DNA from: Vermamoeba vermiformis
Taxonomy: Eukaryota
DNA length: 64,000 nt
Assembly (NCBI GenBank): GCA_045837725.1
Contig: JBEWZL010000101.1
Location: 372,001-436,000 of the forward strand
Reading direction: 5' to 3'
Position numbers and translations under genes: made by a program. Positions 16,455 to 64,000 of this stretch are shown here, one piece after another. Within the stretch, counting starts at the first letter, position 1; every line of letters starts with the position of its first letter. A model generated the notes under the pieces. That model worked only from the letters and a program-made list of their open reading frames with translations, did not search any database and was not told the DNA's origin.

Positions 16455-18466
16455 ATGGATATACTACCGCTCGATGTCTGGCCCTTAATTGTTAGTTTCA
16501 TGAATGCCAAAACAAAACGGCAGATGCGACTCGCAAACACAAAATGGTTCAATACTATCAAATATAATAAGTTTAAAATATTTTTTGCACGATCAAAGAA
16601 TATTCAAGCCATTGCAGAACGATTATCAAAATATTCTTGGCCGATCGAGATTCACTTTTTAAAACCCAAATTTGACAGACCATTGGACTTGATTAATAAT
16701 TTACCAATACTTACCAACCTCAAAAAAATATCGGCAAGTGATGTGGATGAAATCGAAGATATTAGCGCGGGCGCAATTGCAGCAGGCAATCGACGGAGGG
16801 ACCGAAACAGCGAAACGAGCGAGATTTGCAGAAATTGTATGTTCAGTTCGAACATTGAATTAAGAACGAACACCACAACTCATATTGGTTATTAAATTTT
16901 TATTTTTATTTTGTATACTAGGTGCGTGTCTAGGCGTTCGTAGGGCCCAACCATCGATACGGGGGCTGTATGAACGAAATCTAGCACCTAGCCAATAAAC
17001 CTGAATTATCGCCCGCGAGTGTAGCGAGTTAAGTCCCGGCAGATCAATGGCGCCAACTTTCAACACTCACCAATATTGAACACTGGAAGCTTAGAGAAGA
17101 ATATTTACCACAAGATTTATGGCTAAAATTCACTAAATTGACTAAATGGGGAGTTACGTTACCCGACGAAGAACTTGTGCCGATCTTGAAGCGGATGACG
17201 AACTTAAATTCATTAAGCTTGTATTCCGAGGACTCAAAAACATGGCCTTTTGCACTCACATATAGCCCAGATAAATTAACAAGACTAAACATCAGCGTTT
17301 CAGAGAAGCAACAACATGGCAGTGAGATCTGGGCCTGTTTAACGAATCTGAAAGCCTTAGTTTATTCCGAGAATATTAACGAAGGATACAATGATATAAA
17401 GCTATCGTTTTTAACGGTGTTGACGATTCGTCAGTTAGATTGCAAAAAACTTCCGTCTTTAGCAAGAAACACGAATTTACAGCATCTGTCACTCTACTGC
17501 CAAAAGTGGTCCACAAGCAAAACTCACGATTTATCAAATTTAAAAAATCTGCGAATATTATCGATAGTTTACCCTCGTCAACAAAAGCCTGTTCAATTCA
17601 ACTTTTTGGTGCAACTGCTACAACTCGAAAGTTTCGCAATCACGGCCTCGGATATGACAACAGATGTGTCAAATGCATCGGATGTATTATTTCAGTACTT
17701 GCCATATTCTTTGAAGAGACTAAAATCGGATCTTGATTTGGATGTGGTCAAAATTACGCATCTGACAAATTTGGAAGAACTCGTTCTATACAAAAATTGC
17801 ATTAGTAATCAACACTTGACAGCGTTATCAAATATGACTCGTTTAGTTGTCGATCAAAATAATGTAATGCAAGATTGGAAAGTTATTGGAAAATTGACGC
17901 GATTAATCGAGCTCGATTTGGCATGCACTTCCGACGAAGACGAAAATGTTGACGATAATGTACCTGATATATCAAGTTTAACCAACCTTATTACGTTACG
18001 TTGGACATTGAACGAGTTTCCCATCCACAAACTTGCAGCGGTGGCTTATTTGACAAAGCTAGAAGAATTGTTTATCTCTGCGCACAACGAATCAGATCCA
18101 TCATTTGTTAATCAATCCGACTTTTTATCGATATTAACAAATTTGACACGACTATCATTACAACTAAAGACTAGCGATAACACATTATGGCAAAACATTG
18201 CAAAATTGACGAATATCGAATCGCTCAGTATACACTACGTAGATCACGATGATAGATTATTGACATTAACAGCGTTCAAGAATTTAACTGAATTGACCAT
18301 AACTTCTGCTGCGAAAGAATTTACCGGCCAGCATTTTACTGCCTTAACGAATTTACAAGACATTTATTTTCGAGGTGATAGTACTCAATTGGTGCATAAG
18401 AACGAAGACTTGAGGAAGAAAATGCCTTATTTGTTAAGGTATTCGTACTTCGTTCCTTTAGTGTAA
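16455..18466 (+). pseudogene. F-box/LRR paralog of the 11563 gene interrupted by a 272-bp insertion (pseudogene, or rescued by splicing)
   Basis: Colinear with the 11563 protein up to ..EIEDIS(A) at 16766 and again from ADQWRQLSTL at 17039. The intervening 272 bp has no counterpart in the paralog and shifts the frame. Confidence 0.8.
16767..17038. mobile_element. Short (about 270 bp) insertion of unknown origin
   Basis: Absent from the paralog. GC-rich ends (CGGG...CCCG), possible 1-2 bp duplication, and an internal GTATGT...poly-T-TAG intron-like segment. No long TIRs seen. Confidence 0.55.
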
Positions 18467-22418: not shown

Positions 22419-24030
22419 ATGAAACGACGAACTGATCAACGGGAGACGGAAGACTCAGATCAAGAACTAAAAAAATCTAGATTGACCAATTTCCACGTAA
22501 GATCGCTCTTATAATATTTGCCATTCATATCATAATTTATAACAATTTTTGAAGGATTTTCTGATTGACGATATCATGAAAATTATTTTCTCGCTTCTGG
22601 ATGAGACTTCTCGAAGACACGTTCGTCTTGTCTGCACCAAATGGTTCAATCATATCAACTACTCGGTATTCAACATTGGAGCTATTCTGCCATCAGAGAT
22701 TGAAGAAGTGGTTCGAGTGTTTGGTCGATACAACCAACAGATCGAGCTTCACTTCAAACAAAAGAGCCCCGTGCTACGTAAACCAAGACAAAAAGAAGAG
22801 TATCAACGAGTTGAAGAGCTGTCAAAGCTGACGAACTTGTCTGCGCTAACCATGGACGGCTTTTACTATCATCAGTATCTGGCTTTTACGAATTTAACAT
22901 CGCTAAAGAGTTCCACAATTGGCGATCCGACGATGAAAACCCTCACAAAGTTAAAGAAAGTAGTGGCGGACGATATTTATTGCGATAGCACTGTGAATTT
23001 GGCTCAATTAGAAGAATTGTCGCTTACTGGCCAGTGCAACTTTGGCGGCAGAATTATTGCTCGAGCATTGAATGTCAAACACTTGACATTACTCAAAACA
23101 GACTACCCTAATTATTTAGGAGCAGGCGATACTTATTGCAAAGAAGATTTTAGACTATTGACGAAGCTTGAATCATTGACGGTGGATGACATGCCGATCG
23201 CGTGGGATCAGCTGTCAACAACTTTGACACGTGTCATCGTAATGTCCAGGCAGGAATGGAGTGGCACCCAGCACGCTGTCTTTCAATCGACAAACTTGAC
23301 CAATCTTCGGCACTTATCTATTCAAAACAACCTTGATAACTTGGAGATTTTTCCTTATTTGGAAAGTCTGTCCTTGAAAAACTTCAATACCTTATGTCAA
23401 CAAATATCCTCTTTATCGCACTTGACATCATTGAAACTCAGTCAATTTCCTGTTTTAGATGCATCGATGGATTTAATCAGCGAATTGATTCAACTTTGCG
23501 AGCTTGAATTGAAACCCTCTCCCACTTACCTAAAGGCATTCGATATGCAATATTTCCAAGAATTAACGAATTTGACTTCATTAGAAATGCCATTGACAGT
23601 CAGGCCGAGAAATATTGACACTTTGACACGATTGACAAGGCTTCAGACATTAACTCTCAAACTTGAAGACAACAAAACAGATTTTCTGTACACGCTGACA
23701 AATCTTACAAGACTAGATATACAATATGACGAGTCAAGTATTCCCTTAAACTTAAAGTCATTGACGAAGCTTCATGAACTTTCCACGGAAACGGAGAATA
23801 CTTTCACTGGCTTTGACACCTTGGCAGCGCTAACAAAGCTCATATTTCAGCAAAAAATCAAAGACAGTGACAGCCATTGGCATAATATATCAAAGTTGAC
23901 AAATCTTATTGAATACATCGAAGTCGGTGGGTTCGTTTCCCAAACGGATCCAGATCGGCTGACACAACTGATAGTTTTCAAGCACTTGACAAGATTAACA
24001 ACCGCTCTGTATTGTACGGCAAGACCTTAA
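22419..24030 (+). CDS. F-box/LRR protein with short basic first exon; C-terminus appears truncated
   Basis: Exon 1 MKRRTDQRETEDSDQELKKSRLTNFH, intron, then DFLIDDIMKIIFSLLDETSRRHVRLVCTKW (F-box) and LTNL repeats. Ends about 50 aa earlier than the paralog at 25276. Confidence 0.85.
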
Positions 24031-25275: not shown

Positions 25276-27058
25276 ATGAAACGAAGGCAGAGCCACATTT
25301 TAGAAGCTTCACCCGAAGCTGATCGACCAAACAAAAAGTTAAAAACCAGTGATCAATCAAATTTCCAGGTAATAATTAGTTTTATCAATTCTCATATTTG
25401 ATTTACCATATTTAATATTTTTGAAGGATTTTCTGATCGATGACATCGTGAAAATTATTTTCTCATTTCTGGATGAGACTTCTCGAAGACACGTTCGTCT
25501 TGTCTGCACCAAATGGTTCAATCATATCAACTACTCGGTGTTCAATATTGGAGCTATTCTGCCATCAGAGATTGAAGAAGTGGTTCGAGTGTTTGGTCGA
25601 TACAACAAGCAGATCGCGCTTCACTTTAAACAAGAAAGCCCAGCTTTTTTTGGCATGAATAGCAGCGAACCATTATTACCAACAAGAGACCAGTCAACAA
25701 TAGAGCCATTATCAAAATTAACCAATTTAGTGGCATTATCAATACCTCACTTTAATGACGCGTTTTTCGTGTTGACTAATCTCACCGCGCTCAAAAGTCT
25801 GAACAGAATTCAATGCAGCACACTACAAACATTCACAAAATTAAAGAATTTGACAATAGGCTTTATTGACGGTGATTTATCGACCAATTTACCGCAACTA
25901 GAGGAACTGTCAATTACGCAGAGCGGAACTAATGGTGCACGACTTGCGGAAGTAGCTCCGAAACTGAAACACGTGACGCTATTAAACTGTGCTTATGAAA
26001 CGAAACTTCCAAGAGATAACTGTACCTTGCCTTCGCTAGAGTCATTATACGTGGACAAATCATGGGGCTCATTCGGTGACTTACCTGCTTTGACACGTGT
26101 CACAATTGAATTTGACAGTTTAAGCTTTGCGCGCCATCGAGTGGGACATTTAACGAACCTTAGACATTTAAATATTGGAGACAATATCAAAGTGGCAAAT
26201 TTTCCTTATTTGGAAACTTTATCATTGTTCTGTAGAAAACCGAAGCACGTTCAACAGCTGACCCAACTTCAACACTTAACATCATTGTGTCTATTCTATG
26301 GCACTCTTTCACTAAGTGAGTTGCACGTCCTTAGCAAATTGACTAGTGTTCGTAATCTGGAACTTCAACCGACATGGTATAATAGCAATGGAGCAATGGA
26401 TCTGGCCTTCATTAGTGCTCTAACGAACTTAACTTCATTCAAAATAACACTCCCAAGATATGTGAGTGGCACTGATAGCTTGAAATATCTAACAGCGTTG
26501 AAAGAGCTGGAGTTTGAAAGTCTTGGCAGAATTGTCGACGGATTCGTTGACAGCTTAACAAACTTGACAAAGCTAGATTTACGATTATGGCAAACACCTA
26601 ACTATACACATAATTTGGGTAATTTAACGAACCTAATTGAACTTTCGTTAAAGACCTACAACCTGGATCGAACACTCAGCAATAATTACAGCGGATTCGA
26701 AAATTTGACGCAGCTAACGAGACTCACTTTTGGTAGTATTGTTGACGATACGCATTTGAATAGTATTTCAACGCTGACTAAGCTCAAAGAATATGCTGAA
26801 GATGCTGGATTTGACACAAGGACGGATCGTGATCGACTTTCACGATTGACAGCTTTCAAACATTTAACTAAACTCGTCACTGGATCAATTCTGGATATTA
26901 ATTATGATTATATCACCTCATTAACGAAGCTGCAAATACTGAAATTATTCGGAGTTGATAACAAACTTTATTCCAAATTGACACTATCTTTGCCGTTTAT
27001 AGCGCAACAAGATAATACTCCGCTCAGTTACTTGGTTGAAACGTCTAATAAATATTAA
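25276..27058 (+). CDS. F-box/LRR protein with short basic first exon
   Basis: Exon 1 MKRRQSHILEASPEADRPNKKLKTSDQSNFQ, intron, then DFLIDDIVKIIFSFLDETSRRHVRLVCTKW and a long LRR region. Confidence 0.88.
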
Positions 27059-27281: not shown

Positions 27282-30200
27282 TTATTGGATACTAGGACTT
27301 ATGCTAGTAGGTTCTTTCCGACACATTTTAATTTGATCAACAATTTGGCTCGCCGATGGTCGTTTTTTTGGATCTTGTTTGCAACAGTCCATAAGAAGCT
27401 GCCGCAACTTTGTATCTTTAAACTTTTCATTAATTTTCTTAACACGTTTATCTTCGCTACTGCTCGGTAATAATGGCTCTCCGGTAAGCATTTCAAAGAG
27501 CACAACGCCGAACCTGACCAAAAAAAATTCTGAGAATTTTTTCGTTGATGAAATATTTAACTTACGAATATATATCACATTTCTCGTCGTATGGGTCTTG
27601 GCTTAATACTTCAGGGGCCATATAATTGAACGTTCCGATAACATTAACAGTTTTCTTTTCGAGTTCTTTAGCTGTTCCAAAGTCCGCAATTTTTGCTCGT
27701 CGGCCATTATAGAGCTAAATAATGAATTAATAAAAATAAAAATAAATAATTTTGCATAGAAAATATGTTACCAGAATATTTCCGGTTTTGATGTCTCGGT
27801 GAATAACTTTCGGCATCCTTGAGTGCAGGTACATCAAGCCCTTAGCGACATCAAGAGCGATCTGCATTGAATCTGGTATTGACAACGTTGATTTTTTCTT
27901 CAAAAAATCTTCGAGAGAACCGTCCTTTAAGTACTCCATGACTAAAACCACGTCCGCTGTGTTTGGATCAATTGAAACTCCGTACGACACAACGATATGC
28001 TTGTGACGAAGCCGCCTAAAAATCAAGTTAAAATGCTGTTTGACATTTTGACACTTTATGGGAGAAGTTTGAGCGGCGTGAAAAATATTATGACACTTTG
28101 ACACGTGTCACTTTTTTTGCTGGAGTTTCACTTACGTAAGAGCCTCTGCTTCCTCCGCGAATATTGTAATGTTAGACATTTCACTTCCGTCTTTCATTTT
28201 TTTCAGCGCTACGTTTTGTCCGAGCCATTTGCCTTTGTACACTTGGCTGAAACTTCCCGCACCAAGTGCCATCTTGCGATCAATTGTGATCTGCTCGAAA
28301 GGAATTCCTTTAAACTTGTTAATTGGTGTATGATTAATATAAGTTATTTATAGTGTTCTTACCTGATTGGCTATTAACGACATTTCTCACGACGTTATGT
28401 AGCAAAGAATTAAGTTGTTGTTTTAACGCTGCATTTTCTTGCTCGTATTGAGCGATTTTAGTCTCCAAACTGTTCCATTTCAAAAGACTTAGCGACTGTG
28501 CTGTAATGAATTTGTTGTTTGCGGAGCTCGCGAATTGCATTCTTGACACGTGACACACGACATCGATGCGCCAGTATTGTTCGACAATGATGAGATTTAG
28601 GCACGGCATTTGCGCCGCACTTGTGTTTGCAATAATATTCATCTTTTTGATCTTTTTCATGAATTCAAAGTGCAGTAGTTGATCGGCTTTGAGACTGGTC
28701 ATGCCAAGTGTCAAAATGTCAAATGTGACGAAGATATTTTTCTCTTTCAAGATCTTCGATTGGAATAACTTCAACTGAGTTTCTAATTCTAGCTTTGTTA
28801 AGACTTTTGGATCGCATTCAACAGGCACTCCTTGCGTGATAAATTGACCTGAATCTCGCAACGCCAGATCTATATCTTCAATGGATAAGACATATGCTTC
28901 TTTCGCTTTTGATATAATGAATGCATCACTCAAAAGTTTTTCGATATCTGCAGGAGCGAGATCTCGGTCACGAATTCCTGACTTGCGCTCTCCGGCTAAT
29001 TCTTTTCTGCAACCTAAACGAAATTGTTACTTTTGACACTGTTGACACTTTGACACTATAAACAGATTTGAACTATTTCAGTGAGCCAAAAAATGAGGCC
29101 TAAAGTACGCACCAGCAAGTCGCTCGGCAAGTTTTTTAACGCTTTCTGCAGTCAGATTATGTTCGTAACTTTGTAGCAGCAAAAGCAGCATGTAATTGAT
29201 CATAGACGGCGATGAAATCTTCGGCCAGGCAATACGAGCGAATTTTTGTTCTTTAGAATTGTCAAGTACGATATTTGAAGTTGCTGTAGAAACATAAAAT
29301 CAACTAGTTAGAAAATAATTATCAACTACTACTGAAATTAAATTCGTACCTAGAACTATAATAGAGCCGGGAGTAATATTGAATTCATTAATGAGCCTGA
29401 AAAATTCCCGAATGCTTTTCTGTTGTCTCGGATCATCGTGCTGAATGAACATTTTTTCCACGTCTTCGATTAAAATTGTTATTTCTACGCCTTCTTTTTC
29501 GTGAGCAATTTTCGCGAAATTAAATAAAACTTTTGGATTCAGTCCCTATAGAAACATAAAGGACGGTCAAAAACTTTGACACCTGTCATTCAGAGTGTCA
29601 ACACCATTTACCTTGTTATCAGGATGAAAATCAGCAGGTGATAGAGCTATGTAAGGCCGGTCCATATTTTGCACTGTTAATGGCGTCAGTTTAATAAACT
29701 TAAAAAAAAAATCGACTTCCGTCGAAGCGTACTTAAAAGTTTAATAGCCATACTTCCCTAATAAAAATATTAGAATATATAGTTAAATTTTGTAGTGTAT
29801 ATACGTACTGGTCTGTATAATAAGACACTAGTTGGATATCGACCCTCGTTAAATCCACCTTCGAACCAGGCAGACAACATCATCGCATTTACATCGGCGA
29901 TTAATCCTTCAGCTCGCGCATTTTCCTGCGTAAACATATTTGCAATGACTAATTCTTCTTTGGAAGTAACGCATCGGAGTAACTTTTCTTGTAATGCAAA
30001 TTGAGTCACCGTGTCTTTCATGAAAACTGACTGACAGTATCCTGCGTACACTTCTGGCGCTATTTTTTTCGAGGAATAATTAAATAGCTGTTCTTTGATT
30101 GTATTTTGTTTTTCTATCCTTGCTGCATCTGATTGCGAGAGTTTGTCGAGATCGAATTTAATCAGTGCATTTGTTTCGATTGAAAGAGCCTTCATTATTT

Positions 30201-31464: not shown

Positions 31465-32509
31465 TTATTTGTTCTGCTGTACTAATTGAGCAAGGTACTC
31501 GCTGACAGAGATCGGCTTAATGTGAGCGTAGAACGGGTCAGTTAAGTTATCGAGCGGGCTTAACGCCGCACCGTTAGTCTTCAAAATGAATTTTTGAGCT
31601 CCGAGCGAGAATTTTAACATAGCGTTGTCGGTGGCTTGGATTTGTTGATCGAGTGACTCAAGCGTGGGCACGTTCTTCTTCCATTCGGAGCCTAAGTAAA
31701 ACATATTAATAACTGAGCATAATATGCCTAGTGGAAATCCCTCAAAGAAATATTGTGCGTACAAAATTGGATCCGCTTGGATCACGCATGTTTCAAGACT
31801 TACCGGTCAATTTCTCGAGTTGAGCAACGACATCATTCCATTTAAAAGTCTCGGCACCGAGTCTGACTGTCTTGTTCTTAGTATTAGGGTTCAACAGGAT
31901 CTCAGGCACGAGTCGGGCAATGTCGTCAGTGTGAATGGCTGTCATGACTGCGTCGCCGTACAAATTGATTGATTGCTCTTTAACGTTGACGCCAGCGAAT
32001 GGGCTGAACAAGTTGTCCATAAACGGGTTATTAACGACGAAAGTGTAGTCCAAGCCGAGCTTGTGGATCTGCTCTTGGGCGGCCTTCTTCAAATCCCAAG
32101 TCACGGTCTGACCCTTTGGCATAGCCTCGGTGTCGTTACCAAATTCAGAGGGAATAATGCGTTTGACCTTCGAGTAAGCCGAGGCCTCGATAAGATTGGG
32201 CTGCAATCCAAGAGCTTCTTTGCCGACGACTGAAATGACGACATCTACTCCTTGAGTAGCCTACAAAATCGTCAATAATTATGAAAATATTTTTAAATTT
32301 GTACATACCTTCTTGAGAGACTCTACATCGCTAAGATCGCCTTCCACGATTTTGGCTCCCTTGGATTTGAACTCGTCTGTTTTTGGGCTTGGTTTTCTAG
32401 CTAGTACAAGAACTTCAAATTCCTTCTTTGCCAAAAATGCGTCAGTAATTTTAGCTCCGAGGAAGCCAGTAGCTCCGGCAATTAAAACTGTTTTGAGTTG
32501 GGTTGACAT
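31465..32509 (-). CDS. NmrA-like / isoflavone-reductase-like NAD(P)-binding protein
   Basis: TVLIAGATGFLGAKI, VEGDLSDVESL, QPNLIEAS..VKRIIPSEFG, TDDIARLV. Confidence 0.9.
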
Positions 32510-32864
32510 CTGATCGGATCTTGTCTTAGATTCGTTTCTGTTTCTGTTGTGTTGTAATGTGTATGACCACGTTAAATAATATAATGAACTGCCGTGAAAA
32601 TTTTTATGGTTAGTGCTTTGTAATCGTTGAGAACATTCTGTGCGGGACCGAATATTCTCACCAGGGCTAGGAGACAACGGGATCCTAAAAAGGAAACTTC
32701 TCGGGCGAAAGTTACGAGCACCAGATATTTCCAGTACATTCGCAGCGATGAGAACCATCTGGAGGAAACCGATAACAAAAATAGTTCTATTTATTTACCT
32801 TGTCAGATTCGAATCTCCAAAAACTCGATCCAACCCTCTGTTGAGCTTAAAGTCTAGAATCTAG

Positions 32865-42862: not shown

Positions 42863-44282
42863 ATGTCGAAGCCAAGTATCAAAGAATTTATACAGAAGAA
42901 GATTAAAGAATATAACAATAGCCCAGCCTCAATTGAGCAGCTAATCTTGGACAATATGTGCAAAGGAGGCGAAATAGAAGGCTTGACCGACGCGTTTACA
43001 GACTTGGAAATATTGTCGATGAATAATATTGGTCTAAACTCTTTGGCTGGCTTACCTAAGCTTCCAAAACTTCGCAGGGTAAATCGAGATTACCGATCAA
43101 TTTTTTTCTTTTCAACGCCGCCCTAACTACAGCTTGCTCACATATTTTAAGCATGTTTTATCGTGCCATTCTAATTTTGAAACTTTTACTAACAAAAATT
43201 ATATGATTGTGGTCTGAAGGCTTGCTGCTGGGCGTAAACTAAATGAAAGCAAATTTCCTTCGTTCAAAAAATCTCGTTTTAGCCAGGGCGCGTACGCAGA
43301 ACCTAACTAACGCTTATTCTCGATACAGCTTGAAGCTACCGACAACAGAATCTCATCAGGCTTAGAGAGCTTAGGAAAGGCGAACCTCAAAAACTTAACC
43401 ACGCTAAAATTGAGCGGCAACAAAATCAAGAATTTCAGCGACCTCCAACCACTGGTAAATTTTGACCGTCAAAAATTTTGCTCTGAAATTTGACACTCAA
43501 ATTTTCGTGCTTCGTACACGAGTATCATTTTGCGCTACTAGGTCTTATTTGGTATCGCGTGCGTTGTCACTCGTGGTAGTTGTGCGTTTGCTTGCTTGAT
43601 CCAGATCTAACCCGATCTTTTTTTAGTCCTTCCTCAAGAGCTTAGAAGTCCTAGACTTGTTTGGATGCGAAGTCACAAAAGAAAAAGATTATGCCAAGAA
43701 GGTCTTCGAGCTGATCCCGACTTTGAAGGTGCTCGACGGCTACAACCAGTAAGTCGCGGATGTGCTGATCTGGCGCGTGCTCTGTTCACTCACTAATACT
43801 TCTATAGGAAAGGTGAAGAGGTCGACGAGGACGAAGAAGACGACGAAGAAGATGAAGAGGATGAGGAAGAAGAGGAAGGTGATGATGAAGAAGAAGAGGG
43901 TGACGAAGGTGACGAAGGAGAAGGTAAGTTCAAGATCCGCTTTTTCATTTACATTATTGAATCAATCTTTAACGATTGTATGAGTCGCTTTACGGTCCCT
44001 GGGTCTAATATTCTATGCATAGGTGATGATGACGAAGGCGAAGGTGAAGAAGAGAGTGACGACCAAGAGAACGAAAACGAAAATGAAAATGACGCTGAGA
44101 ACGGCGACTCCGAAGAAGGAGACGACGATGAAGAGCCTGAAGATGAAGGCGAGGATGACGAAGAGGAAGGTGATGAGCCTGAAGATGAGCCGGAACAGAC
44201 AAGTACATCCAACAAAAAACGGAAAGCTAGCGAAGCTGAGTTATCCGAGGATAGCGGGAGAGCTCTCAAAAAGAAAAAATAA
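42863..44282 (+). CDS. ANP32: Acidic leucine-rich nuclear phosphoprotein 32 (ANP32/LANP) homolog
   Basis: EQLILDNMCKGGEIEGLTDAFTDLEILSMNNIGLNSLAGLPKLPKLRR, LRRcap DYAKKVFELIPTLKVLDG, long D/E tail and terminal NLS (KKRKA..LKKKK). Confidence 0.93.
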
Positions 44283-44447
44283 TATATGTATAGTCGCCGT
44301 ATAAATACTTTTGTAATTAGCTCGAATCACGGTCGCGTTTGGATGCGGGTTTAAAATCCTCAATTTATTTAAGTTTTAAAACGACACTAAGCTATGAATA
44401 CGTATTCCAAACTGCAAATACAATAAAGTGCGCGCTTCGAACTGATC

Positions 44448-47400
44448 TTATAAGCCTGGCGTAGAGTAGTCTTCGTCACTTGACGAATCCGAGTTCGCGT
44501 AGAAGTCAAGCTCGACATTAGGCGGCTGCAACCATTGGCCTTGCTTTTCAAGAATTGTTCGGAATTCATGGTACAAGTCATCGCAGTCTTATGCATTCGA
44601 TTAGTTCTACGTTTGGCTAATAATTATGTCAAGATCCAGAATAACTTACTCCTTCGGACTAGTTGCTCTTGTTCCCAAGTATGGCGAGGGTCTCCCTTCC
44701 ATTTAACATGCAGGAAAGGCTCCGATTCATACTGGGGTCTAATTAGAACTATTAAATTTTCAATTTGTACGTACTTCAGCGTTTCGCTCAACAAATCTTT
44801 CAATCTCCCATTCCTCTCCGTCGCTACTTTCTTCTTTTGCGCTAGGTTCATTTTCGATGTCCATTGGCTCAGGAACTTCATCTAGCAAACTGTCCATAGC
44901 TTCAAATTTACGTTTCAAAATTGAATTGCCTGTTTCTTCCGGCATTTCCACGACTACTTCCGTAATTGGCACTGGTACCCTAAAATCGAAAATATCGGCT
45001 GCATCCGGTTTTTTCTCGACCTGACAAAAAAAAATTGTTAAAATTATTAAGTATAAAGACGTGTTAATAAGAACTTACGCTTAAAAATGACGTAATTCCG
45101 GGTCCATGAGATTCGTAAACCTCATCGCGAAGAAAGCCACGAATAACCATTTCGATCAACAAATCGTTGTGATAACTTCGGGGCAACTTTCTTCCGTACT
45201 TCTCTTTGATTTTTCGCTTCATTTTATGAAGCTCCTTCTTCAGCTTTTCTTTATTCGCTAATTTGTCTTCCCAATCGAATTTGTTGTTGCGCAATGCATC
45301 TGATACGTTCGCTAATGACGCTTTCACGTTCGCTTGATTGAGACTCCATACTGTATATAAGATTAATATAAGATATTAGAAGGCTTTAAAATAGTATGTG
45401 TACTTACTCCAAGAACAGATGTATTTTGCGTAGTCAGAATAATCGACGTATTCAAGTCTAATTTCTGAACTGCCTGGCCGAAGACAAACGTCGCACATAT
45501 TTTGGCAAGGTTCAATTTTGGGTTGTCCGATTAAAATCTATATCGTTATATTAGTCCTAAGTTATAGGTAATGGTTGTTCGAGAGTTACTTACGCTGATT
45601 TGCACATGACGGCAAAGATAATTGTTTCGGCAATAACGCAAAATGTTTCGGACTTCTTTCTCAGAATTTCCTTTGCCCGCTTTTACTTTTTGTATCACCT
45701 TCTTGTGGTTGTAATGGTAATACATAAGGCACTCACTCGGCAGTCCGTCGCGACCCGCTCTAAAAGTAAATGTCAAAAGTGTCAAAAAAGACAGTTTAGA
45801 GCACTTAGGGTGCACGGCATCAAAAAAAGGAATAAAAAATCCGTGAGTGTCAAAGTGTCAAAAAGTGTCACACTTTTGTTACGTACCTTCCTATTTGCTG
45901 ATAATAAGAAGCGGCAGAATCGGCCATTGTCCAGTGCACCACGTAGCGGACATTTGGCTTGTCGATGCCCATTCCAAATGCTGTCGTCGCAATCATGCAT
46001 TTCACTTCACCGCTGTTCCATTTTTCCAATGTCGCTGCGTTCTCTGATGCAGTTCGTGATGACTTTTTTGATGAACTCGCGCCATAATATTTGTCGATAT
46101 TTTGAACTCCCATCTGAGAAAAAACGTTAGAATATTTAATAAATAACTTACTGAGGGCTTACCTCGACTAATTTTTTATGCAAGTTGTCGCACTTATTTC
46201 TTGAAGTGCAATAAATTATGCCGTAATCGTTCTTATATTTGTTAATTAACTTGATTATGTCGCCATAGACCATTTCGTCTTTTGACTGGTTCGCGCTTTG
46301 CGCCTTGTGTGGCGCAATCGCTTGTCGCACCATAATACTAAAAAAGGTTATGTCAGTAATCCCCGCTCGATGACTGCGTCAAGTGTCAAAGTGTCAAAAT
46401 GTCATTAAATAGTGAATGTTAACTTACAGTAAATTGGGTCGTGAGAGGTCACCAATTATGACCTTTGGAGCCAAGTTCAGGTCTTTCGTCAAAGTTTGCA
46501 AGTGTGCGGGAGTCATGCAGGCTGACAACCTTAAGTGTTATTGACACGTGTCATTTGATAATTATTAATTACACGTACCTGATGCGAGGGTGTAAGGCAA
46601 TGACGGAAACGACTTTGTTATTTCGGCCAGAGTGTTGTAATGTTCAGGCCTAAAGTCGCTCCACTCATTAAGCACATAAGCCTCATCGAATATAATTCTA
46701 TAAATATAATATCACGTTAGTATTAATGTTTTAAATATTAAGAAGGAACGACATTACCTGTTCACTTTAGTAATTTGCATCAATTTGCGTAGCTTCTTTT
46801 TGTCGATCCAACTACTCAATTTCTCAGCTGTAATGTAAATGAACTTGATTTCTTTCGCTGCGCCAGAAGGATTTTTCAGCCGTGCGAAAAGGTCGTCATC
46901 TTGAATGTCGAACTTGCCTGGTGATTTTTGGCCTTCACCAGTCACTGCCACTGCCTCGTAATTTGTATTTTTAAAGTACTATTATTCAAAACATTATTTA
47001 ATTACTAATATTTTTACTATTTTAGCGATAATTTTACCTTGTTGATGCGGCTCAGTTGGTCGCTAATCAGGGCGATTAGCGGTTCGACAACAATGGCCAA
47101 ACCTTCAGTGACTAATACAGGTGCCTAGTATAATATCTTAACAATTGGAAGTTAATAAAATATCGTAGAACGTTACCCAATAGCAATAACTTTTGCCGTT
47201 GCCAGTCGGCAGGATCAGGACAATGGACTCGCCCTTTCGCGCTAAAGAGACCGCAGTTTCATGGTATGGTCTCAATTGATTCAATCCAAAGACTTGTTTA
47301 TATATGCGTGTCGCTATGGTAGCGCTGCCCTAAAAAGTTGAAATGTTAGCAGATCTGGTACGAGTGAAGTAAAACTTTTAATTAACCTACAAAATTATCG

Positions 47401-47664
47401 TGCTCGCTATAGTCGTGTTTGCATGCACCACACGTGGTTTCTTCTGCCTATAACGCGTTTTGTAAGTGAAAGTTTTTTTGTTTCAATAAATTTCAATTTC
47501 GAAAATATCTTTACTTTATTATTATTATAATTGCCAATATTGTTTAAGTATATAATTATTTGATTGATAAAATTATTACTTACGTTATGAATGTTAGGTG
47601 CGAAGGATAGACACTCGCAACGCTTGCACGCGTTAGGCGGCTTAAACGCCATCCCATTATCCAT
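44448..47664 (-). CDS. RecQ-family helicase with N-terminal Cys/His module and C-terminal chromodomain
   Basis: VFGLNQLRPYH, LPTGNGKSYCY, VVEPLIALISDQ, IYITAEK, IIFDEAY..WSDFRP, SRPNL, GIIYCTSR, ATTAFGMGIDKPNVRYVVH, YYQQIG/RAGRDG, RQC CRH..CQNMCDVC. Ends EEWEIERFV..LHVKWKGDPRHTWEQEQLVRR/NCDDLYHEF. Confidence 0.88.
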
Positions 47665-47843
47665 TCCGATTATATGGCCTTCCAAATCTTGCGTTGTTTA
47701 TAATGAGAAAACAATTGCATCGCGATTCGCTAAGCACCTGTCAAATCTTTGTGATTAGAATTGAAACATTTGACAGGTCAACGTGGTTGGATCCCGCTTA
47801 CTTTGTTTACGCTAAATTAGCCGATAAATATATTAATTATTAC

Positions 47844-49219
47844 TTATTTATATTCGTCATCAAGAATACAAAAAGGTGGCTTATAATACAAACGCTTGAA
47901 ATTTAGATCTAACCAGTCGTCGAATGTCATACCTTGAATGCCATATTGTTGGCTTAGTTTCAATCTTCCTGTCATTGATATATCCTTTTGAACGTATTTG
48001 TACCAGTTTTTGCAAACCAAGCTGAGTTGGAAAAATTCCGCGGATGTGGATCCAACTTGAGCGAACTTCAAAATTATTTGACCGAGCTCTTTGATCGAAA
48101 ATACTGAATGATGTTCTTGAATAGAATCTTTGAACTCCATCGAGTATATCGATGCACCATTATACTTCATAGGATATAATTGCAAGTGACAAAAAGTTTC
48201 TGCGTCAGATCTGGCCTTTGGTTCATGAAGGGTGAATGTCCCTGTGATATAATAGCTACGTTTTGACTCTATATTTGATATTTTGATTAACATAAAGTAT
48301 CCTGTGTCAAACAGGTGGAGCCAGTACGTCTTCGTAAAACTGTGTGAAAAATATTGTGTCAGATCTTGATTTTTTTTGCTAATTATGGCAATAAATTTAC
48401 CGTGGTTTATAGTAGTAATAATATTGAAAGTCGTCATCATCGTATTCTTTCTTGTCAGTATAAGCAAATGATGTATTGCAAAATTTTTGACCGTTGATGA
48501 TCATAATATCTCTTTTTTTGTTCAATATCGTCCTTCTAATGTCACTAAATCCACTAAATTTTGACGCGGCGCACGTGACACTTAATCGCCATTCAATGAC
48601 TGCGTCACGTGTCAAAGTGTCAAAATTGTGTCGGACGAATTCAAGGCTCCAGATTATTTTTCCTGGCTTTTGTATTCTTCGTCTATTTAAATTAGTCCAT
48701 ATTCCTTGCTGCAATATTTGCAGATCGACGATCATATCACTCGTCAAAAAATCAAGTTTCATCATGAAAGTTCCGTTCATATTAACCAACTCTTCGACGA
48801 GTTTGAAGTTGTTAATGCATGATTTTGGCGGTTCTATTCGTTTCTTATTAATATTGGTCCTTATAATATCGTCATCTTGTGTTCTAAGTTCATAATAATA
48901 TTCCAATTCCAAACTTTCGTACGGATCCACAGGCATCGTTGTACTACAATAGGTCATTTATAAATTATTAGTGTTATATATAAACATACCCTTTATATTC
49001 GACAAAGTTACTTTCGCCTTGTTTGCGTAGTTTCATTGTTATCGTTGGCAACATGTCAGATCGGATCTTCAAAGTGAACGGATCTTGCACCGAAAACGGA
49101 TCAAATTCCGATAAATTAAACATTTCTATCGTGCAAGCTTTAATATCACCGGATAGCACGTGATAATCTCCTTGTTGATCTACTAGAAAGACATTTCCAA
49201 ATCTGAAAGCTGTTGCCAA
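47844..49219 (-). CDS. Uncharacterised multi-exon protein with an F-box-like motif near the C-terminus (5' end unresolved)
   Basis: ORFs 48974-49219, 48397-48957 and 47844-48467 join in frame through canonical GT-AG introns. KELGQIILKFAQVGSTSAEFFQLSLVCKNWYKYV resembles an F-box. Confidence 0.55.
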
Positions 49220-54962: not shown

Positions 54963-57900
54963 TTAAGATGAAGATGCGCCTGTTGTTGACGGACTTGATC
55001 CCGACGAGCTCGATCCACTATCAGAGGATGACCTGTCTTCTTCTTCTGGAAGCTCATGAATAGTACTATTATTAATATTCATAGAGGCCATGGCAAGGTT
55101 ATCTTTTGACGGCATTCCTTTGTATTTGGTTCCTTCTTGCGATCCAGGCTGCGAAGCATTTTTCAAATTCGTACTTGTATCGATTGCTGAATAAGGACCT
55201 TCGGCGCTTGAACTACTAGGTGGTGCGTCTCCGTAAGTAGATTGCGGAGGTTGTTCTTCCATGTTCACGGCGGATGTGCCGCGCAGATCTTCTCCCATTT
55301 CTTCGTTCAAAATCTCGACGAGTTCTTCGAAGGTCGGTCTATCCTTAGGGTCCTGCAAATATGGTTTAATGCACTTGCCTAATAAGGAAATCGAGTTTTC
55401 GTGAAGACTTACGGGAGCCCAACATTTGAGCATTAAACTCTTCAAAAATTCGTCCTCGCAAGTTGAGATGTCTGGATGCATGTTGATCTCACGAATTTTC
55501 AATGCCAATTCTAGCAAGTCCCAGCCTTCATAGGGCTCGCGGGCGTATATCATTTCCCTATTGACACGAGTCAGTACATGTATCTCGAGCGGAGATTTTA
55601 TGTCATAAAGTACGTACCACGCAGTAACACCAAAACTCCACACGTCAGATTTGTTACTGTATTCTCTCGTCATTAAGGACTCAGGTGACTATATAATACG
55701 TTAGTATATGTATTTGATATTATTGTTGAAGAGACGTACCATCCATTTGACAGGACCGATCGTGTTGAGAGTTTTACCAGTATTATCGATACCGACGATA
55801 CGCGCCATACCAAAATCCTATAAAATTATCGCAAGTAAGTAACTGAGTATCAAATAGATAAATTTGTACTTACAGAAATCTTTGGGACACCTTGATCCGT
55901 CAACTAAAAATTAAATTTGTTAGAATTATTATAACATGTTTTTTAAGTATATAATTAATGTAGCTTGAGCGTAACGTACCAAGATATTTCTGGTGGCCAA
56001 ATCTCTATGAATGACGTTCTGTGAATGCAAGTGAGACATGCCGCTAGCAATACCGCGTAACAAGTTGCGAATAGTTTTGCCGTCCAAAGAGTAACTCTTC
56101 AAATAGGTCTCCAAACTGCCCTTGCTGCAGTACTCCATGACCAAATGGAACTTTTCTTCGTGCGTGTAAACACCGAAAAGTTGGACGATGTTTGGATGCG
56201 GTCGCAGCTCACTTTAAAACACATTAGATATGGAACTATAAGTATTTTTTGTAATATATACGCTTAAAAATTCATTTTCAGTGGATGTGGTCTTAAAAGG
56301 AAAGAAATAAGTTAACAATAATTCTCAGAAAAAGCTCTTGTATTAACACTACTTAAATACTTACGCCATGACTTGAGCTTCTTTAATCATTTCAGCGCTA
56401 GTCTTGCTAGACTCATTCTGCGTTACTTTGACGGCCACCTCCGTAACTCGATTCAATTTGCCTCTCCAGACCACACCAAACGAGCCCTGACCGAGCTTAG
56501 TGAGCAATAAGACGTCGTTGGGCGATAACTCCCAGCGATTGGATTTGTTGCTGCCATTGGCAACAACGTTTTCAACACCTGGAATCGGAACGGAGACTAA
56601 AATTCCAAATTAGGAAATGGCTGCAATATTCGAGAAGAGGGTCATATATGGATCTTACCATAATTGGTATCTTCGAGCGGAAGTTCATCGTCTTTCTTTT
56701 GATTTTTCTTTTTCTTCTTTTTCGGTTTGACGACCACGAAGAAAACGATCAAAAATATTCCGACGCCAACGACCACAGCAATAGGAACAACTATGGCAGC
56801 AATTATTCCGCCGGTTAGACCCTGAGGTGTCGCAGTCTCATTCTTTCGCGAGAAAAGAATTCCATCCAATGGCTGAACGCTCCAAAGTGCTTCAATGGCG
56901 ACGGAAAAATTCGCGGAATAACTCTCGGGGGTGCCCAAGCACACTTTTTTCAGGCACGTGACGTTAATGAGCTCATCAAATGATGGGTCGTAGTTGGGAA
57001 AACCGAAGAATGCACCAGTGTCAAATTGCGTATCTGTGTTAGGCACAGCCGTCTTCAACAACACGTCGTAAAAGGACTTACTTCCGGAGTCAGTCCAGAA
57101 CTGCAAAATGATCACGTGATTAGTTTCATGAATGAATATGATAGTGCCCGGCAGTCTCGTCAAATTGATATGCCTGAGCTTATAATTAAATAAATAGGAT
57201 GAGTACGTACGGTAGTGCTGCCACAGGTCTCAACGCATCTAGCGTGCGCACAGGTCACGGAGTCTAACGAAGGAGCAAGATGTGTGAGTTGATTTAAATG
57301 GCCAATTGGTACGTAGGCTGTGGGACATTGTGGGGCCCTATTAAATACGAAATTTAGTTTCGAATATCGGGCTATTAAAAGTTTTGGATCTCATTAAATT
57401 GGCTGAAATTAATTGAGAGTATGAAATATAAATGAAAATTACCAAAATCCTCCATCGAGCCTAGCGTTACTGTTCGCGTCGATCCAGATCTGGGCATAAG
57501 ACAAGGGGGACGCCAACAAGGGTTTGTGACTAGGATATCTCGGCAATGCAGAGTCTGCTTCAATCTCCTTTACGACTGTATTGAAACATCGGTGAGTGCT
57601 GTAAGAAAGTATACAAAAGTATATCGTAGCTTACATTCTAAGTTCAAATTGAAGCTTGCGGTGATGTTACACGCGTCACCGGTACGTTTGTAACCATCAA
57701 ATTCGTCGTACCTCCAGCACGTTATATTTGTATCGACTGGACTACCATACGACGCCCATAAAGAGGTGAAGCTCGCTAACAAAAAGATTAGGATCCAGAT
57801 CTTGACAAATTGATTTGATTAATTTTTACCTGGTTGAACTGGTGCAGTTTGAAGAGTGTTGTCAAAGCCAAGGGAGCTATTCATATACGTTTGTAACGCG

Positions 57901-62551: not shown

Positions 62552-64000
62552 ATGGAGCAACTTAAAGATCAGATCAGAGAGCAAGGAGAGGCTTTGCGAA
62601 AACTCAAAGCTAATAATCCAGAATGGCATACAGATAAGAAAATCTTAGAGCATATTTGGAATTTATTGAATTTGAAGAGCAAAGACCCAGCTTTGAACGA
62701 AGAAGTCTTTGGAACTGACAAGGTAAAATAAATTTAAAATCTCAGTTCAGAAAATATTTAATTAAATTTAAAGACCGGCAATATGATAAATATATTAAAT
62801 TAAATCGTGGCAGCATAAATTTAATATTTTTTTGCATTATTTTAGCCAGCGAAGCAAATCAAGATCCGTTGGTACGTCGTAGACGACAAGAAAAACAAAA
62901 TTCGCTATCAAAATGTATTCAAAAACCGTACTTTTGTCACGGGCAAAGAAGTAATCGCTTCAATCAACAACTATATGCACTCCCTCGTCCAACGAAAGAA
63001 AGACCAACTTCCAAAGCACGTGACGGGAGATTTCGTTAAAATCGAACACGTGTCCAGACCCGTCGCTAAGGCGGCAAAGGTCTTGCGCTCAATTACAGAA
63101 GAAGACATGTTCAGATTGCCTGCAGTCTTCCCTGGTCCTACGTTACAGCCTGAAACAGTCATAGAGTTTAAGGTCACTTTCCCTGGCCCTGCTTATCACT
63201 TGACCACGCCTGAAGCATATAACCTTCATAGACCCGAGATCGTTGACGCAGGTACGTAATGACGGCAATACTTGATATTTCTGAAGCTCGATCTGATCCG
63301 TGTAAATGTAGGTGTTAACTTGTTCGAGAAAGTGTTGTACAAGAACGTCGATGCAGTCATTGCACGATCATTTGCAGCTGGTGTATCTCAGAGTGTACTG
63401 ATTTCAATTGACGCTCAAACTAGTGCCACGTCAGTCGAGATCTGCAAGAAACATTTGCAAAGCTTGTACGCAACGGCTGGTGTCCATCCTTTGTATATTG
63501 GCAATGCTCCAGTAGCTCGCGGAGACGAAGAGGAGAAGAAACAGATTGAAGAGGATGAGAAGGCCCTGCAGTCCGCGCAACCTGAGGGTGCTGAAGCCAA
63601 CCCGAAGGCCGAAGAAAGTAACAATAGCAACGAGAAGCCTAAAGAGAAGGACTTGAAGACTGAATTGAACGCCATCACAGCTCTCATTAAGCACAATCCC
63701 GAGTATGTCGTCGCTGTCGGTGAGATTGGCTTGGACTTTAAGGACAACTTGGCACTTGGTAAGTTGAATTCAGATACTTTTACGCTCGTAAGCAGGGATT
63801 GACGAGCTATATAATAGAGTTGAGAGAGACGCAAAAAGTGTGGTTCGAAGAGCAACTCAAGTTAGCCGCTGAGTTGAAGTTGCCCGTGTTAATTCACGAG
63901 CGTGAAGCTTTCAGAGAAACGATTGACATCCTCCGAAAGTACAGATCTCAGTTACCAACCGTCGTGATTAACTGCTTCACTGGCTCGCAAGAGGAAATGG
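62552..64000 (+). CDS. TatD-family nuclease with N-terminal WHEP-like domain (3' end beyond window)
   Basis: N-terminus LKDQIREQGEALRKLKA. TatD motifs IVDAG/VNL, YATAGVHP, VAVGEIGLDF, FEEQLKLAAELKLPVLIHER, VVINCFTG. Confidence 0.85.

Follow-up and report, generated by a model that had tools for sequence, protein, structure and literature searches.

RecQ helicases guard genome stability, and partner proteins largely account for their recruitment to particular chromatin. A gene on the minus strand of the window, the 64,000-nucleotide stretch of Vermamoeba vermiformis DNA analysed here, raises the question of whether a RecQ motor can carry a chromatin-targeting module of its own: a first-pass annotation, made from the sequence alone, had described it as a RecQ helicase with variant catalytic motifs and a C-terminal chromodomain. 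An HP1-type chromodomain within the RecQ chain itself would link histone marks directly, and testably, to a recombination or replication helicase. The observation of a RecQ helicase gene ending in a chromodomain was confirmed.

Gene structure and origin

Splicing from numeric coordinates gave a coding sequence of 15 exons, 2250 nt and 749 aa (44448..47664), with its start ATG at 47664-47662 and a single, terminal stop (TAA, 44448-44450); these are the coordinates first given for the gene. All 14 introns were of the GT...AG type and 43-136 nt long. The spliced frame was colinear with the homologues P0005, P0001, and P0003 (388/718, 401/572, and 243/439 identical residues, respectively) with no indels at exon ends and, given this colinearity, the predicted frame is more than a product of chance. 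P0005 is a continuous protein of 743 aa, and both P0005 and P0003 are continuous open reading frames with the chromodomain included. Coordinates of the gene and its features are collected in Table 1.

Table 1. Positions in the window of the RecQ-chromodomain gene and of the features of its predicted protein.
Feature	Position	Strand	Remarks
Whole coding sequence, exons 1-5	47664-47584, 47447-47391, 47329-47177, 47124-47038, 46978-46758	minus	
Whole coding sequence, exons 6-10	46697-46579, 46521-46428, 46337-46163, 46113-45887, 45759-45594	minus	
Whole coding sequence, exons 11-15	45537-45408, 45350-45079, 45020-44775, 44731-44650, 44587-44448	minus	
N-terminal Cys/His module, aa 13-44, exons 1-2	47391..47664	minus	C-x2-C-x-C-x2-F-x-P ... 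C-x2-C-x-H-x4-H
Motif 0 (Q motif) variant RPYHE	47258..47272	minus	His in place of Gln
Walker A PTGNGKS	47189..47209	minus	Lys kept, Asn at usual Gly
Motif II DEAY, aa 204-207	46676..46687	minus	Asp and Glu kept
Motif III S-A-C, aa 239-241	46517..46582	minus	split by intron 6
Second RecA lobe (Helicase_C)	45744..46337	minus	motif VI GRAGRDG at 45744-45891, across intron 9
RecQ zinc-binding region	45484..45614	minus	Cys C454, C471, C475, C478
Winged-helix (RQC-like) region, aa 483-594	45079..45471	minus	fold seen in the model of homologue P0005
Acidic, Ser-rich linker, aa 595-662 (~70 aa)	44817..45020	minus	acidic patch at end, adjoining chromodomain
Chromodomain, aa 663-716, exons 13, 14, 15	44550..44816	minus	introns 13 (44732-44774) and 14 (44588-44649) inside
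Short C-terminal tail	44448..44549	minus	conserved Trp, ...P-N...DFY patch, acidic Ser-rich end

The two exon joins inside the chromodomain, expected near 44725-44773 and 44590-44650, were recovered as proposed, after ...NAE (phase 0) and after ...VRR (phase 1). Whether these exons are spliced to the helicase received an indirect answer: genomic read-through fragments (P0122/P0277) that are 96% identical to P0005 carry introns that match introns 13 and 14 of the window gene in both position and phase, whereas the window's organism yielded no junction reads. Three RNA-seq runs with the same species label (~13 million records each) placed 2, 6, and 5 reads on 44200-48000, mostly from the 3' end of the neighbouring gene (with 2 differences) and from a repeated intron motif. 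The exon joins and expression of the window gene itself are predictions, and support for splicing comes from the homologues.

Chromodomains are common in retrotransposon integrases, and the gene could belong to a transposable element or giant virus, or be a recent acquisition from one, with its chromodomain derived from a chromovirus-type integrase. Vermamoeba does carry giant-virus insertions according to a preprint (bioRxiv 10.64898/2026.05.21.726589), and the annotation of P0005 comes from short metagenome contigs. Such an origin is nevertheless extremely improbable: the gene has 14 spliceosomal introns, at least three of which (8, 13, and 14) lie at positions shared with homologues, its compact flanks sit beside ordinary genes, no transposase, integrase, or reverse transcriptase ORF and no terminal repeats were found around it, and viral contigs (IMG/VR) held no relatives. 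A separate lead towards AcademH/KolobokH helicase transposons, taken from the available portion of PMC10799480, was rejected on the absence of transposon features around the gene.

Helicase core and its variant motifs

Pfam searches of single window exons returned Helicase_C at E 4.9e-13 (exon 9) and DEAD at E 7.5e-4 (a 63-aa piece from the Walker A exon, below cut-off), and both domains scored above cut-off in P0005 and P0001. RECQ1 (RECQL) was the best of the solved relatives of P0005 (194.9 bits, E 1.6e-56), followed by E. coli RecQ (2.2e-51), RECQ5 (1.3e-45), and BLM (4.4e-44), and the AF2 model of P0005 overlaid RECQ1 residues 70-602 over 507 residues with a Z of 29.3. By sequence, the predicted protein is a RecQ-family helicase (SF2).

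The first-pass reading of motif II as DEAY rather than DEAH, and of motif III as SAC rather than TAT, proved correct at the residues listed in Table 1. The fourth position of motif II is Tyr in the window protein and P0001 and Phe in P0005 and P0276, compared with His in 256/257 aligned non-family RecQs, and motif III reads T-A-C in P0005 and S-A-L in P0001. Two other conserved deviations had been overlooked, namely the exchange of Gln for His in motif 0 and the Asn in Walker A. The motif 0 His is found in the window protein, P0005, P0001, and P0276, and Gln in all 250 aligned non-family RecQs (13 of the 263 were gapped here), while the Walker A column holds, in the 263 other RecQs, 203 Gly, 26 Ser, 13 Ala, 8 His, and 2 Tyr among those listed, plus 8 gaps. 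The aromatic-rich loop W-S-D-F-R-P is kept but is one residue shorter than the usual RecQ loop, and the Arg fingers of motif VI are kept throughout the family and in 263/263 other RecQs.

A weakened ATPase could follow from the changes in motifs 0 and II, and the core may even be catalytically impaired, as a pseudo-helicase or slow switch, in which case the protein would chiefly bind DNA structures on chromatin or act there as a scaffold. The two replacements at near-invariant positions, the Walker A Asn for Gly, the shortened loop, a motif III that departs from T-A-T, and the very long stem branch of the family (2.99 changes per site) all fit with this. I consider it rather unlikely, as the Walker A Lys, the motif II Asp and Glu, both motif VI Arg, the loop Trp, Phe, and Arg, and the four zinc-binding Cys are kept, and conservation within the protein is highest in the two RecA lobes, where the window protein and P0005 are identical at 146/223 and 82/143 residues. 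Moreover, these variant residues are shared between family members, a sign that an altered function has been maintained and not that the core is decaying. As the catalytic Lys, the Asp-Glu pair, and the Arg fingers are in place and the motif 0 and II changes are family-wide, nucleotide recognition or its coupling is probably altered rather than lost. The family, changed at two essentially invariant RecQ positions, is a natural experiment on the roles of the motif 0 Gln and the motif II His.

Zinc region, winged helix, and position among RecQ helicases

RecQ_Zn_bind (Pfam cut-off 25 bits) scored 27.0 bits in P0005, 28.6 in P0003, and 27.3 in P0001, and a sub-threshold 14.7 on the single window exon; the four Cys columns were nearly invariant in the RecQ alignment A2. 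For the winged-helix region, Pfam RQC gave a sub-threshold E of 0.019 in P0003 and no match in P0005, and residues 264-603 of the P0005 AF2 model superposed on the D2-Zn-WH structure of RECQ1 (6jtz) over 299/303 residues (rmsd 2.7, Z 28.5). Identity between the window protein and P0005 was 33/94 in this region. The alignment with RECQ1 runs as far as the winged helix and no further, and RECQ1 shares with the window protein two RecA lobes, a four-Cys zinc sub-domain, and the lack of an HRDC domain, along with a winged helix that is predicted for the window protein from the P0005 model. The earlier premise that RecQs normally end in HRDC was overstated: HRDC (E<=1e-5) occurred in 8/39 of the nearest non-family RecQ representatives. 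What sets the window protein apart from RECQ1 is the family's motif 0 His, DEAY/DEAF, and Walker A Asn, together with an additional N-terminal Cys/His module and C-terminal chromodomain.

The similarity to RECQ1 is not matched by phylogenetic grouping. The family was at most 38% identical to any other RecQ, and in a tree of 63 rows and 397 columns it formed a separate clade (support 100) on its long stem, outside the group that holds a RECQ1-named fish protein and hence not grouped with RECQ1, in a topology subject to long-branch effects and built without RECQ4, RECQ5, and WRN anchors. Among 5.8 billion proteins and 1.84 billion representatives, only about six sequence lineages of the family were recovered, in agreement with the annotated lineage specificity, and only one named member, from Vermamoeba. 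Residues 480-743 of P0005 as a query retrieved P0005 and P0003 only, a near-length search with window exon 13 found no further family members, and a search of metagenome contigs found one generic RecQ with 30% identity (L001) and no further member of the family.

The C-terminal segment is a chromodomain

Detection of the C-terminal domain depended on the method. Pfam Chromo (PF00385) had no match on single window exons (E<=1) or on P0005 and P0003 (E<=10), but a profile built from the C-terminal ends of P0005 and P0003 and searched against solved structures returned chromodomains as 21 of 33 matches (E<=10) and as all of the top 10, and its best match, 6mha (E 0.0016), paired profile positions 1-50 with chain residues 1-51. 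An AF2 model of the isolated homologue domain, made from a 2-sequence alignment and not independent of sequence similarity, was of the strand-strand-strand-helix type with blocks at pLDDT 79-90; in the full-length P0005 model the C-terminus was helical at pLDDT <50 and did not reproduce the chromodomain fold. The matches listed by Foldseek for the isolated model were all chromo or chromoshadow domains, with Oxpecker, Rhino, MPP8, and CBX at TM 0.72-0.77 and 23-33% identity. A Foldseek-independent VIA scan of 48,161 chains gave 33 at Z>=5. An HP1 chromoshadow domain and the chromodomain of Oxpecker ranked highest (both Z 8.5), SUV39H1 and Rhino came next, and GEN1 (Z 7.7), cpSRP43 (Z 6.7), and the CHD1 and CHD4 chromodomains were also among the fold matches. 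The nearest ESM Atlas clusters were Chromo (0.86 and 0.85), which is a lead only. The full-protein Pfam, fold, and PDB tests were run on homologues 44-49% identical to the window protein in this domain (24/54 and 26/53 residues). The chromodomain assignment of the first-pass annotation thus found no backing in Pfam and stood on the profile search of solved structures and the fold comparison.

The missing Pfam match, a best E against solved structures of only 0.0016, and the lack of junction reads from the window's organism might be taken to mean that the segment resembles a chromodomain by chance or that the exons of the model were wrongly joined, and that the gene is an ordinary RecQ paralogue. 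This is very unlikely in view of the predominance of chromodomains among the profile matches, the end-to-end alignment, the agreement of two structural aligners, the retention of the domain with the same intron positions in homologues, and its inclusion in the continuous frames of P0005 and P0003. By homology and modelled fold, the segment is an HP1-like chromodomain, and its in-frame fusion to RecQ through the last three exons, as first described, was found in 3/3 members with known C-termini (the window protein, P0005, and P0003).

Its closest counterparts are the HP1-class chromodomains that read H3K9me3 (HP1/CBX1/3/5, Rhino, Oxpecker, MPP8, SUV39H1, and CDY), with which it shares three strands and a helix, the signature E-E-W...K-W...T-W-E...N-C..L...F, 23-34% identity, TM 0.72-0.77, and Z 7.4-8.5. 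It differs in falling below Pfam detection, in a strand 2-3 loop that is 2-3 residues shorter than in HP1 and Rhino, and, compared with HP1 itself, in being attached to a helicase rather than to a hinge and chromoshadow domain. Positions 1 and 2 of the aromatic cage are Trp in the window protein (W665 and W687), P0005, and P0003, and judging from the title of entry 6mha a Trp at position 1 is compatible with Kme3 binding. The third cage residue is Asp (D690), as had been noted, and is missing from P0005 and P0003, where the loop is one residue shorter still.

These features leave room for a chromodomain that does not read methyl-lysine. The fusion would then be real, but the domain would contact DNA or play a structural part in the manner of GEN1/Yen1, mediate protein-protein contacts or dimerisation like a chromoshadow domain, or read an unmethylated basic peptide like cpSRP43. 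The third cage aromatic is lacking in all three members, the strand 2-3 loop is short, and the HP1 chromoshadow domain, GEN1, and cpSRP43 were fold matches as good as true chromodomains. The GEN1/Yen1 resolvase (6grb, Z 7.7; 5t9j, Z 6.1) is likewise a recombination or repair enzyme with a single chromodomain and an incomplete aromatic cage; in the available text of PMC5039027, the GEN1 domain packs on the nuclease core with its cage closed by a helix, is without two rim aromatics, contacts and secures DNA, and bound none of the histone peptides tested. In the window protein, by contrast, two cage Trp and the T-W-E motif are kept, a long acidic linker of low model confidence lies between domain and core, and both linker and tail, being acidic, would repel DNA. 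Its sequence is also closest to that of H3K9me3 readers, with the 23-34% identity noted above against 9-24% for chromoshadow domains. A non-reading role is possible but doubtful, and the domain is predicted to read methyl-lysine.

A fusion hidden from domain searches

None of the 263 other RecQs examined had a chromodomain, and PF00385 was absent from the precomputed Pfam annotation of the 120 RecQ-search matches listed. The source annotations seen for family proteins read plain RecQ helicase and, as curated profiles miss the chromodomain, architecture searches would not reveal the fusion. The arrangement appears to be confined to a handful of amoeba-like sequences. Full-text literature searches returned no report of a RecQ-chromodomain fusion in the text they covered; the accessible part of a Giardia SF2 survey places the chromo domain on Swi2/Snf2 proteins rather than RecQ, and the portions available of the Vermamoeba literature, including the preprint cited above, contain nothing on such a gene. 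CHD remodelers also combine chromodomains with an SF2 ATPase in one polypeptide, but they have a SNF2-type motor and tandem N-terminal chromodomains as opposed to a RecQ motor and a single C-terminal one, and the two fusions are not homologous.

A possible route from histone marks to a helicase

The predicted layout, from the N-terminus, is a Cys/His knuckle, a RECQ1-like core without HRDC, an acidic linker, a single HP1-class chromodomain, and a short acidic tail. The linker equivalent in the P0005 AF2 model had a pLDDT <50 over most of its length, and a chromodomain tethered this flexibly would be able to dock on a lysine-bearing tail that is basic and probably methylated, for example that of H3 methylated at K9. 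In HP1 an acidic patch lies directly N-terminal to the chromodomain, and the patch in the same place here would assist docking in the same way. Docking would raise the local concentration of an NTP-driven RecQ motor on chromatin that is marked, repeat-rich, or silent, and forks, D-loops, or other structures there would be its targets for unwinding or remodelling. I hold, with slightly more belief than doubt, that the host carries here an intact gene for a RecQ-family helicase of restricted lineage and that the protein works in the way just outlined.

A stronger version would place the protein in a hitherto unrecognised 'reader-helicase' class, in which a RecQ motor is coupled to a histone-methylation reader, heterochromatin marks recruit DNA unwinding directly, and the NTP pocket has been re-tooled. 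This version is speculative and, on balance, improbable. If true, such an enzyme may suppress recombination between repeats or feed repeat-derived nucleic acids into silencing, as the Neurospora RecQ protein QDE-3 reportedly does; the motif 0 exchange and the change from DEAH to DEAY/F would relax or change NTP specificity, and a cage of two Trp plus an acid might favour lower methylation states. The significance of the fusion is bounded by an obscure lineage with few members, and the ligand, activity, and biological role of the protein are predictions from sequence and models.

The N-terminal module

The N-terminal Cys/His pattern of the first-pass annotation is present with one correction, in that its last spacing is x4 rather than x3; intron 1 splits the module. 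No Pfam family was found for the module (the best was FAM221 at E 0.13, on P0005), residues 1-50 of P0005 gave no usable matches in the ESM Atlas, and AF2 pLDDT over the module was 38-59. Its five Cys and two His are kept in P0005, P0276, and P0001.

Gene structure and homologues

The window contains a genuine RecQ-family gene, conserved in homologues, to which an HP1-class chromodomain is fused in frame. RecQ-like translations occurred in short open frames arranged serially along the minus strand between 44300 and 47800, and a gene model built from numeric coordinates joined them into 15 exons (2250 nt, 749 aa, single terminal stop). The model runs from an ATG at 47664 to a TAA stop at 44448-44450, exactly the limits given in the first-pass annotation, and all 14 introns (43-136 nt) start with GT and end with AG. 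The motifs reported earlier were recovered after splicing: DEAY (aa 204-207), motif III as S-A-C (aa 239-241, interrupted by intron 6), the GRAGRDG motif, the four zinc cysteines, and a chromo-like segment at aa 663-716 across the final three exons, with joins exactly as proposed. The N-terminal Cys/His module was also there, with its last spacing corrected from x3 to x4 (C-x2-C-x-C-x2-F-x-P...C-x2-C-x-H-x4-H). Three RNA-seq runs with the same species label yielded 2, 6, and 5 reads and zero joints over 44200-48000.

Of 1369 candidates from a search of longer proteins with the Helicase_C exon, 1272 passed E<=0.001, and only five were close (P0001-P0005, E 1.5e-31 to 1.5e-25; the sixth scored 6.9e-13). 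The spliced model was colinear with the homologue P0005 (743 aa, 388/718 identical), with P0001 (576 aa, 401/572), a transcriptome ORF labelled Vermamoeba vermiformis (Amoebozoa, Tubulinea, Echinamoebida), and with the 445-aa fragment P0003 (243/439); no indels at exon ends were found in these three alignments. P0001 tracks the family to the winged-helix region, diverges at residues 555-576 or thereabouts and stops before the linker and chromodomain; intron retention, an assembly frameshift or a truly shorter isoform could explain this.

P0005, P0275, and P0276 are uninterrupted ORFs (743-744 aa) from contigs 2.4-10 kb long. The fragments P0122, P0277, and P0278 come from contigs as long as 561 kb. 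Over P0005 residues 585-699, P0122 shows 96% identity. In both P0122 and P0277, an in-frame insert of 18 aa (V-S start, Q end) sits exactly at window intron 13, and the sequence diverges into S-K-F-P exactly at window intron 14 (phase 1); the terminus of P0278 falls within the insert. The two sets are interpreted as one gene in its spliced and unspliced states; if this is correct, both introns within the chromodomain are conserved and removed in frame. I infer that P0005 is RNA-derived. In P0002 and P0004, the ORF continues through an intron placed like window intron 8.

Helicase core and phylogeny

Pfam identified Helicase_C in window exon 9 (E 4.9e-13) and a sub-threshold DEAD match in exon 3. 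DEAD, Helicase_C, and RecQ_Zn_bind were all above cut-off in P0005 and P0001, as were Helicase_C and RecQ_Zn_bind among the matches of P0003. RQC was no more than sub-threshold. Among solved structures, P0005 matched RECQ1 best (1.6e-56), followed by E. coli RecQ (2.2e-51), RECQ5 (1.3e-45), BLM (4.4e-44), and WRN (about 1e-28). Its AF2 model, computed from a 42-sequence alignment (mean pLDDT 73.6, core blocks mostly 75-95), overlaid RECQ1 residues 70-602 over 507 residues (Z 29.3) and the RECQ1 D2-Zn-WH fragment 6jtz over 299/303 residues (rmsd 2.7), and the latter overlay predicts a winged helix in this homologue. HRDC was absent from the family core and present in 8/39 nearest representatives by Pfam. 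Identity to P0005 was highest in the RecA lobes (146/223 and 82/143) and lower in the winged helix (33/94) and chromodomain (24/54).

Aligning the fetched proteins to a RecQ profile enabled a tally of 263 RecQs outside the family (the window protein and its close homologues). The family has changes of its own at two otherwise invariant helicase positions: motif 0 has His where all 250 aligned non-family sequences have Gln, and the fourth residue of motif II is Tyr or Phe where 256 of 257 have His. The third Gly of Walker A, more variable outside the family (203 G, 26 S, 13 A, 8 H, 2 Y, and 8 gaps among the 263), is Asn. The family retains the Lys of Walker A, Asp-Glu of motif II, the two Arg of motif VI, and the Trp of the loop.

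In a quick IQ-TREE search (63 core sequences, 397 columns), the window protein, P0001, and P0005 formed one clade with support 100 on a stem of 2.99 changes/site, for which the tool gave a long-branch warning. This clade fell outside the bacterial RecQ, RECQ1-like, and long Sgs1/BLM-like groups in a tree built without RECQ4, RECQ5, and WRN anchors. P0001 was the sister of the window protein (support 96; 80% identity over 386 columns).

An exhaustive HMMER scan with P0005 against 1.84 billion representatives gave 37,244 RecQ-like proteins at E<=0.001. The only family members were P0001 (715 bits) and the fragment P0122, the next score was 218 bits (37% identity), and among the matches listed none extended beyond about query residue 626. 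A C-terminal search returned P0005 and P0003 and no others, no family members were found in viral contigs, and a metagenome-contig search gave one generic RecQ at 30% identity. Roughly six sequence lineages are represented (window, P0001, P0002, P0003, P0004, and P0005), and the chromodomain is present in all three with known C-termini. Full-text literature searches, including PMC10799480 and PMC3566956, turned up no description of a RecQ-chromodomain fusion.

C-terminal chromodomain

Pfam Chromo, to which the first-pass annotation had pointed, gave zero matches on single window exons (E<=1), on P0005 and P0003 (E<=10), and on the 39 nearest representatives. Sequence and fold tests were run on the homologous segments of P0005 and P0003, combined in a two-sequence profile (A1). 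Against 177,635 distinct PDB sequences, A1 had 33 matches at E<=10, of which 21 were chromodomains, including the entire top 10 (HP1, Rhino, MPP8, Oxpecker, CDY, CBX1/3/5, and SUV39H1 were matched); the best E was 0.0016 and alignments spanned the entire domain. AF2 folded A1 into three strands and then a helix (pLDDT 79-90 in the first five 10-residue blocks), a model that depends on sequence similarity and is not independent evidence. With this model, the Foldseek matches listed were exclusively chromo and chromoshadow domains (best 7vrf Oxpecker, E 9.7e-4, TM 0.75; 23-33% identity in chromodomain rows). When 48,161 chains were scanned with a second aligner independent of Foldseek, 33 reached Z>=5, led by the HP1 chromoshadow domain and Oxpecker chromodomain (8.5 each), then SUV39H1 (7.8), Rhino and GEN1 (7.7 each), Chd1, Chp1, CHD4, cpSRP43, and an Entamoeba HP1 chromodomain (6.5). 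The closest ESM Atlas neighbours were Chromo clusters (0.86 and 0.85; leads only). The full-length P0005 AF2 model did not reproduce the fold, its region being helical at pLDDT <50. A three-sequence profile (P0005, P0003, and the window segment), run with all filters off against 278 fetched proteins, matched family members only. Outside the family no score exceeded 2.8 bits, and the domain is therefore absent from all 263 other RecQs.

All three members (window, P0005, and P0003) have an acidic, Ser-rich segment directly before the chromodomain; I take it to resemble the N-terminal acidic patch of HP1. Cage position 1 is Trp in all three (W665 in the window protein), and according to the title of 6mha, binding of a trimethyl-lysine peptide persists in an HP1 Tyr24Trp variant. 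Position 2 is also Trp (W687 in the window protein). Position 3 is Asp (D690) in the window protein, as had been noted, and is lost in P0005 and P0003, where the strand 2-3 loop is shorter by one further residue. The tethered chromodomain would anchor the motor to a histone tail that bears a lysine and is probably methylated, and the motor is presumably active with altered nucleotide handling. The main rival is a chromodomain with a non-reader role: the cage-poor chromodomain of GEN1 secures DNA and bound no tested histone peptide (PMC5039027). The GEN1 domain, however, packs against the enzyme core, whereas that of the window protein hangs on an acidic linker.

Genomic neighbourhood

The RecQ gene lies in a compact region with ordinary genes on either side, and no terminal repeats or transposase, integrase or RT ORFs were found around it. 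The NmrA-like, kinase, and TatD-like genes are ordinary cellular genes, which supports a host chromosomal context, and the LRR and F-box matches suggest a locally expanded F-box/LRR family. About 165 nt separate the RecQ gene from the end of a convergent downstream gene with an LRR and acidic tail, whose product is presumably an ANP32-type acidic nuclear phosphoprotein. RNA-seq reads occurred in number only on this neighbour, with two base differences (44243 and 44246). The N-termini of homologues indicate that the ORFs directly upstream are not 5' RecQ exons.

Features of the window around the RecQ gene
Feature	Position	Strand	Remarks
Convergent neighbour	about 43600-44282	+	LRR-cap-like exon, long Asp/Glu-rich tail
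Two overlapping long ORFs	47844-48957	-	218 and 186 aa; no Pfam match
Long, apparently intron-poor ORF	6037-7323	-	LRR
Long, apparently intron-poor ORF	17033-18466	+	LRR
Long, apparently intron-poor ORF	22543-24030	+	LRR, F-box
Long, apparently intron-poor ORF	25376-27058	+	LRR, F-box
NmrA-like gene	31793-32794	-	
Protein kinase fragment	54963-55688	-	
TatD-like DNase fragment	63263-63802	+	
GTGTCAAA motif sites	45846-45863, 46382-46407, 48608-48625, 23613-23630, 28038-28105, 28707-28724, 29040-29057		
44-nt direct repeat	46357-46400		RecQ intron 7
44-nt direct repeat	48583-48626		upstream ORF region

With no more than 3 mismatches allowed, a short tandem motif (GTGTCAAA repeated) has 9 occurrences across the window (0.12 expected), with three copies within RecQ introns 7 and 9, and it made up the loose ends of RNA-seq reads. 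A dispersed element of regulatory or MITE-like type is one possibility. The 44-nt direct repeat (89% identity) contains this motif.
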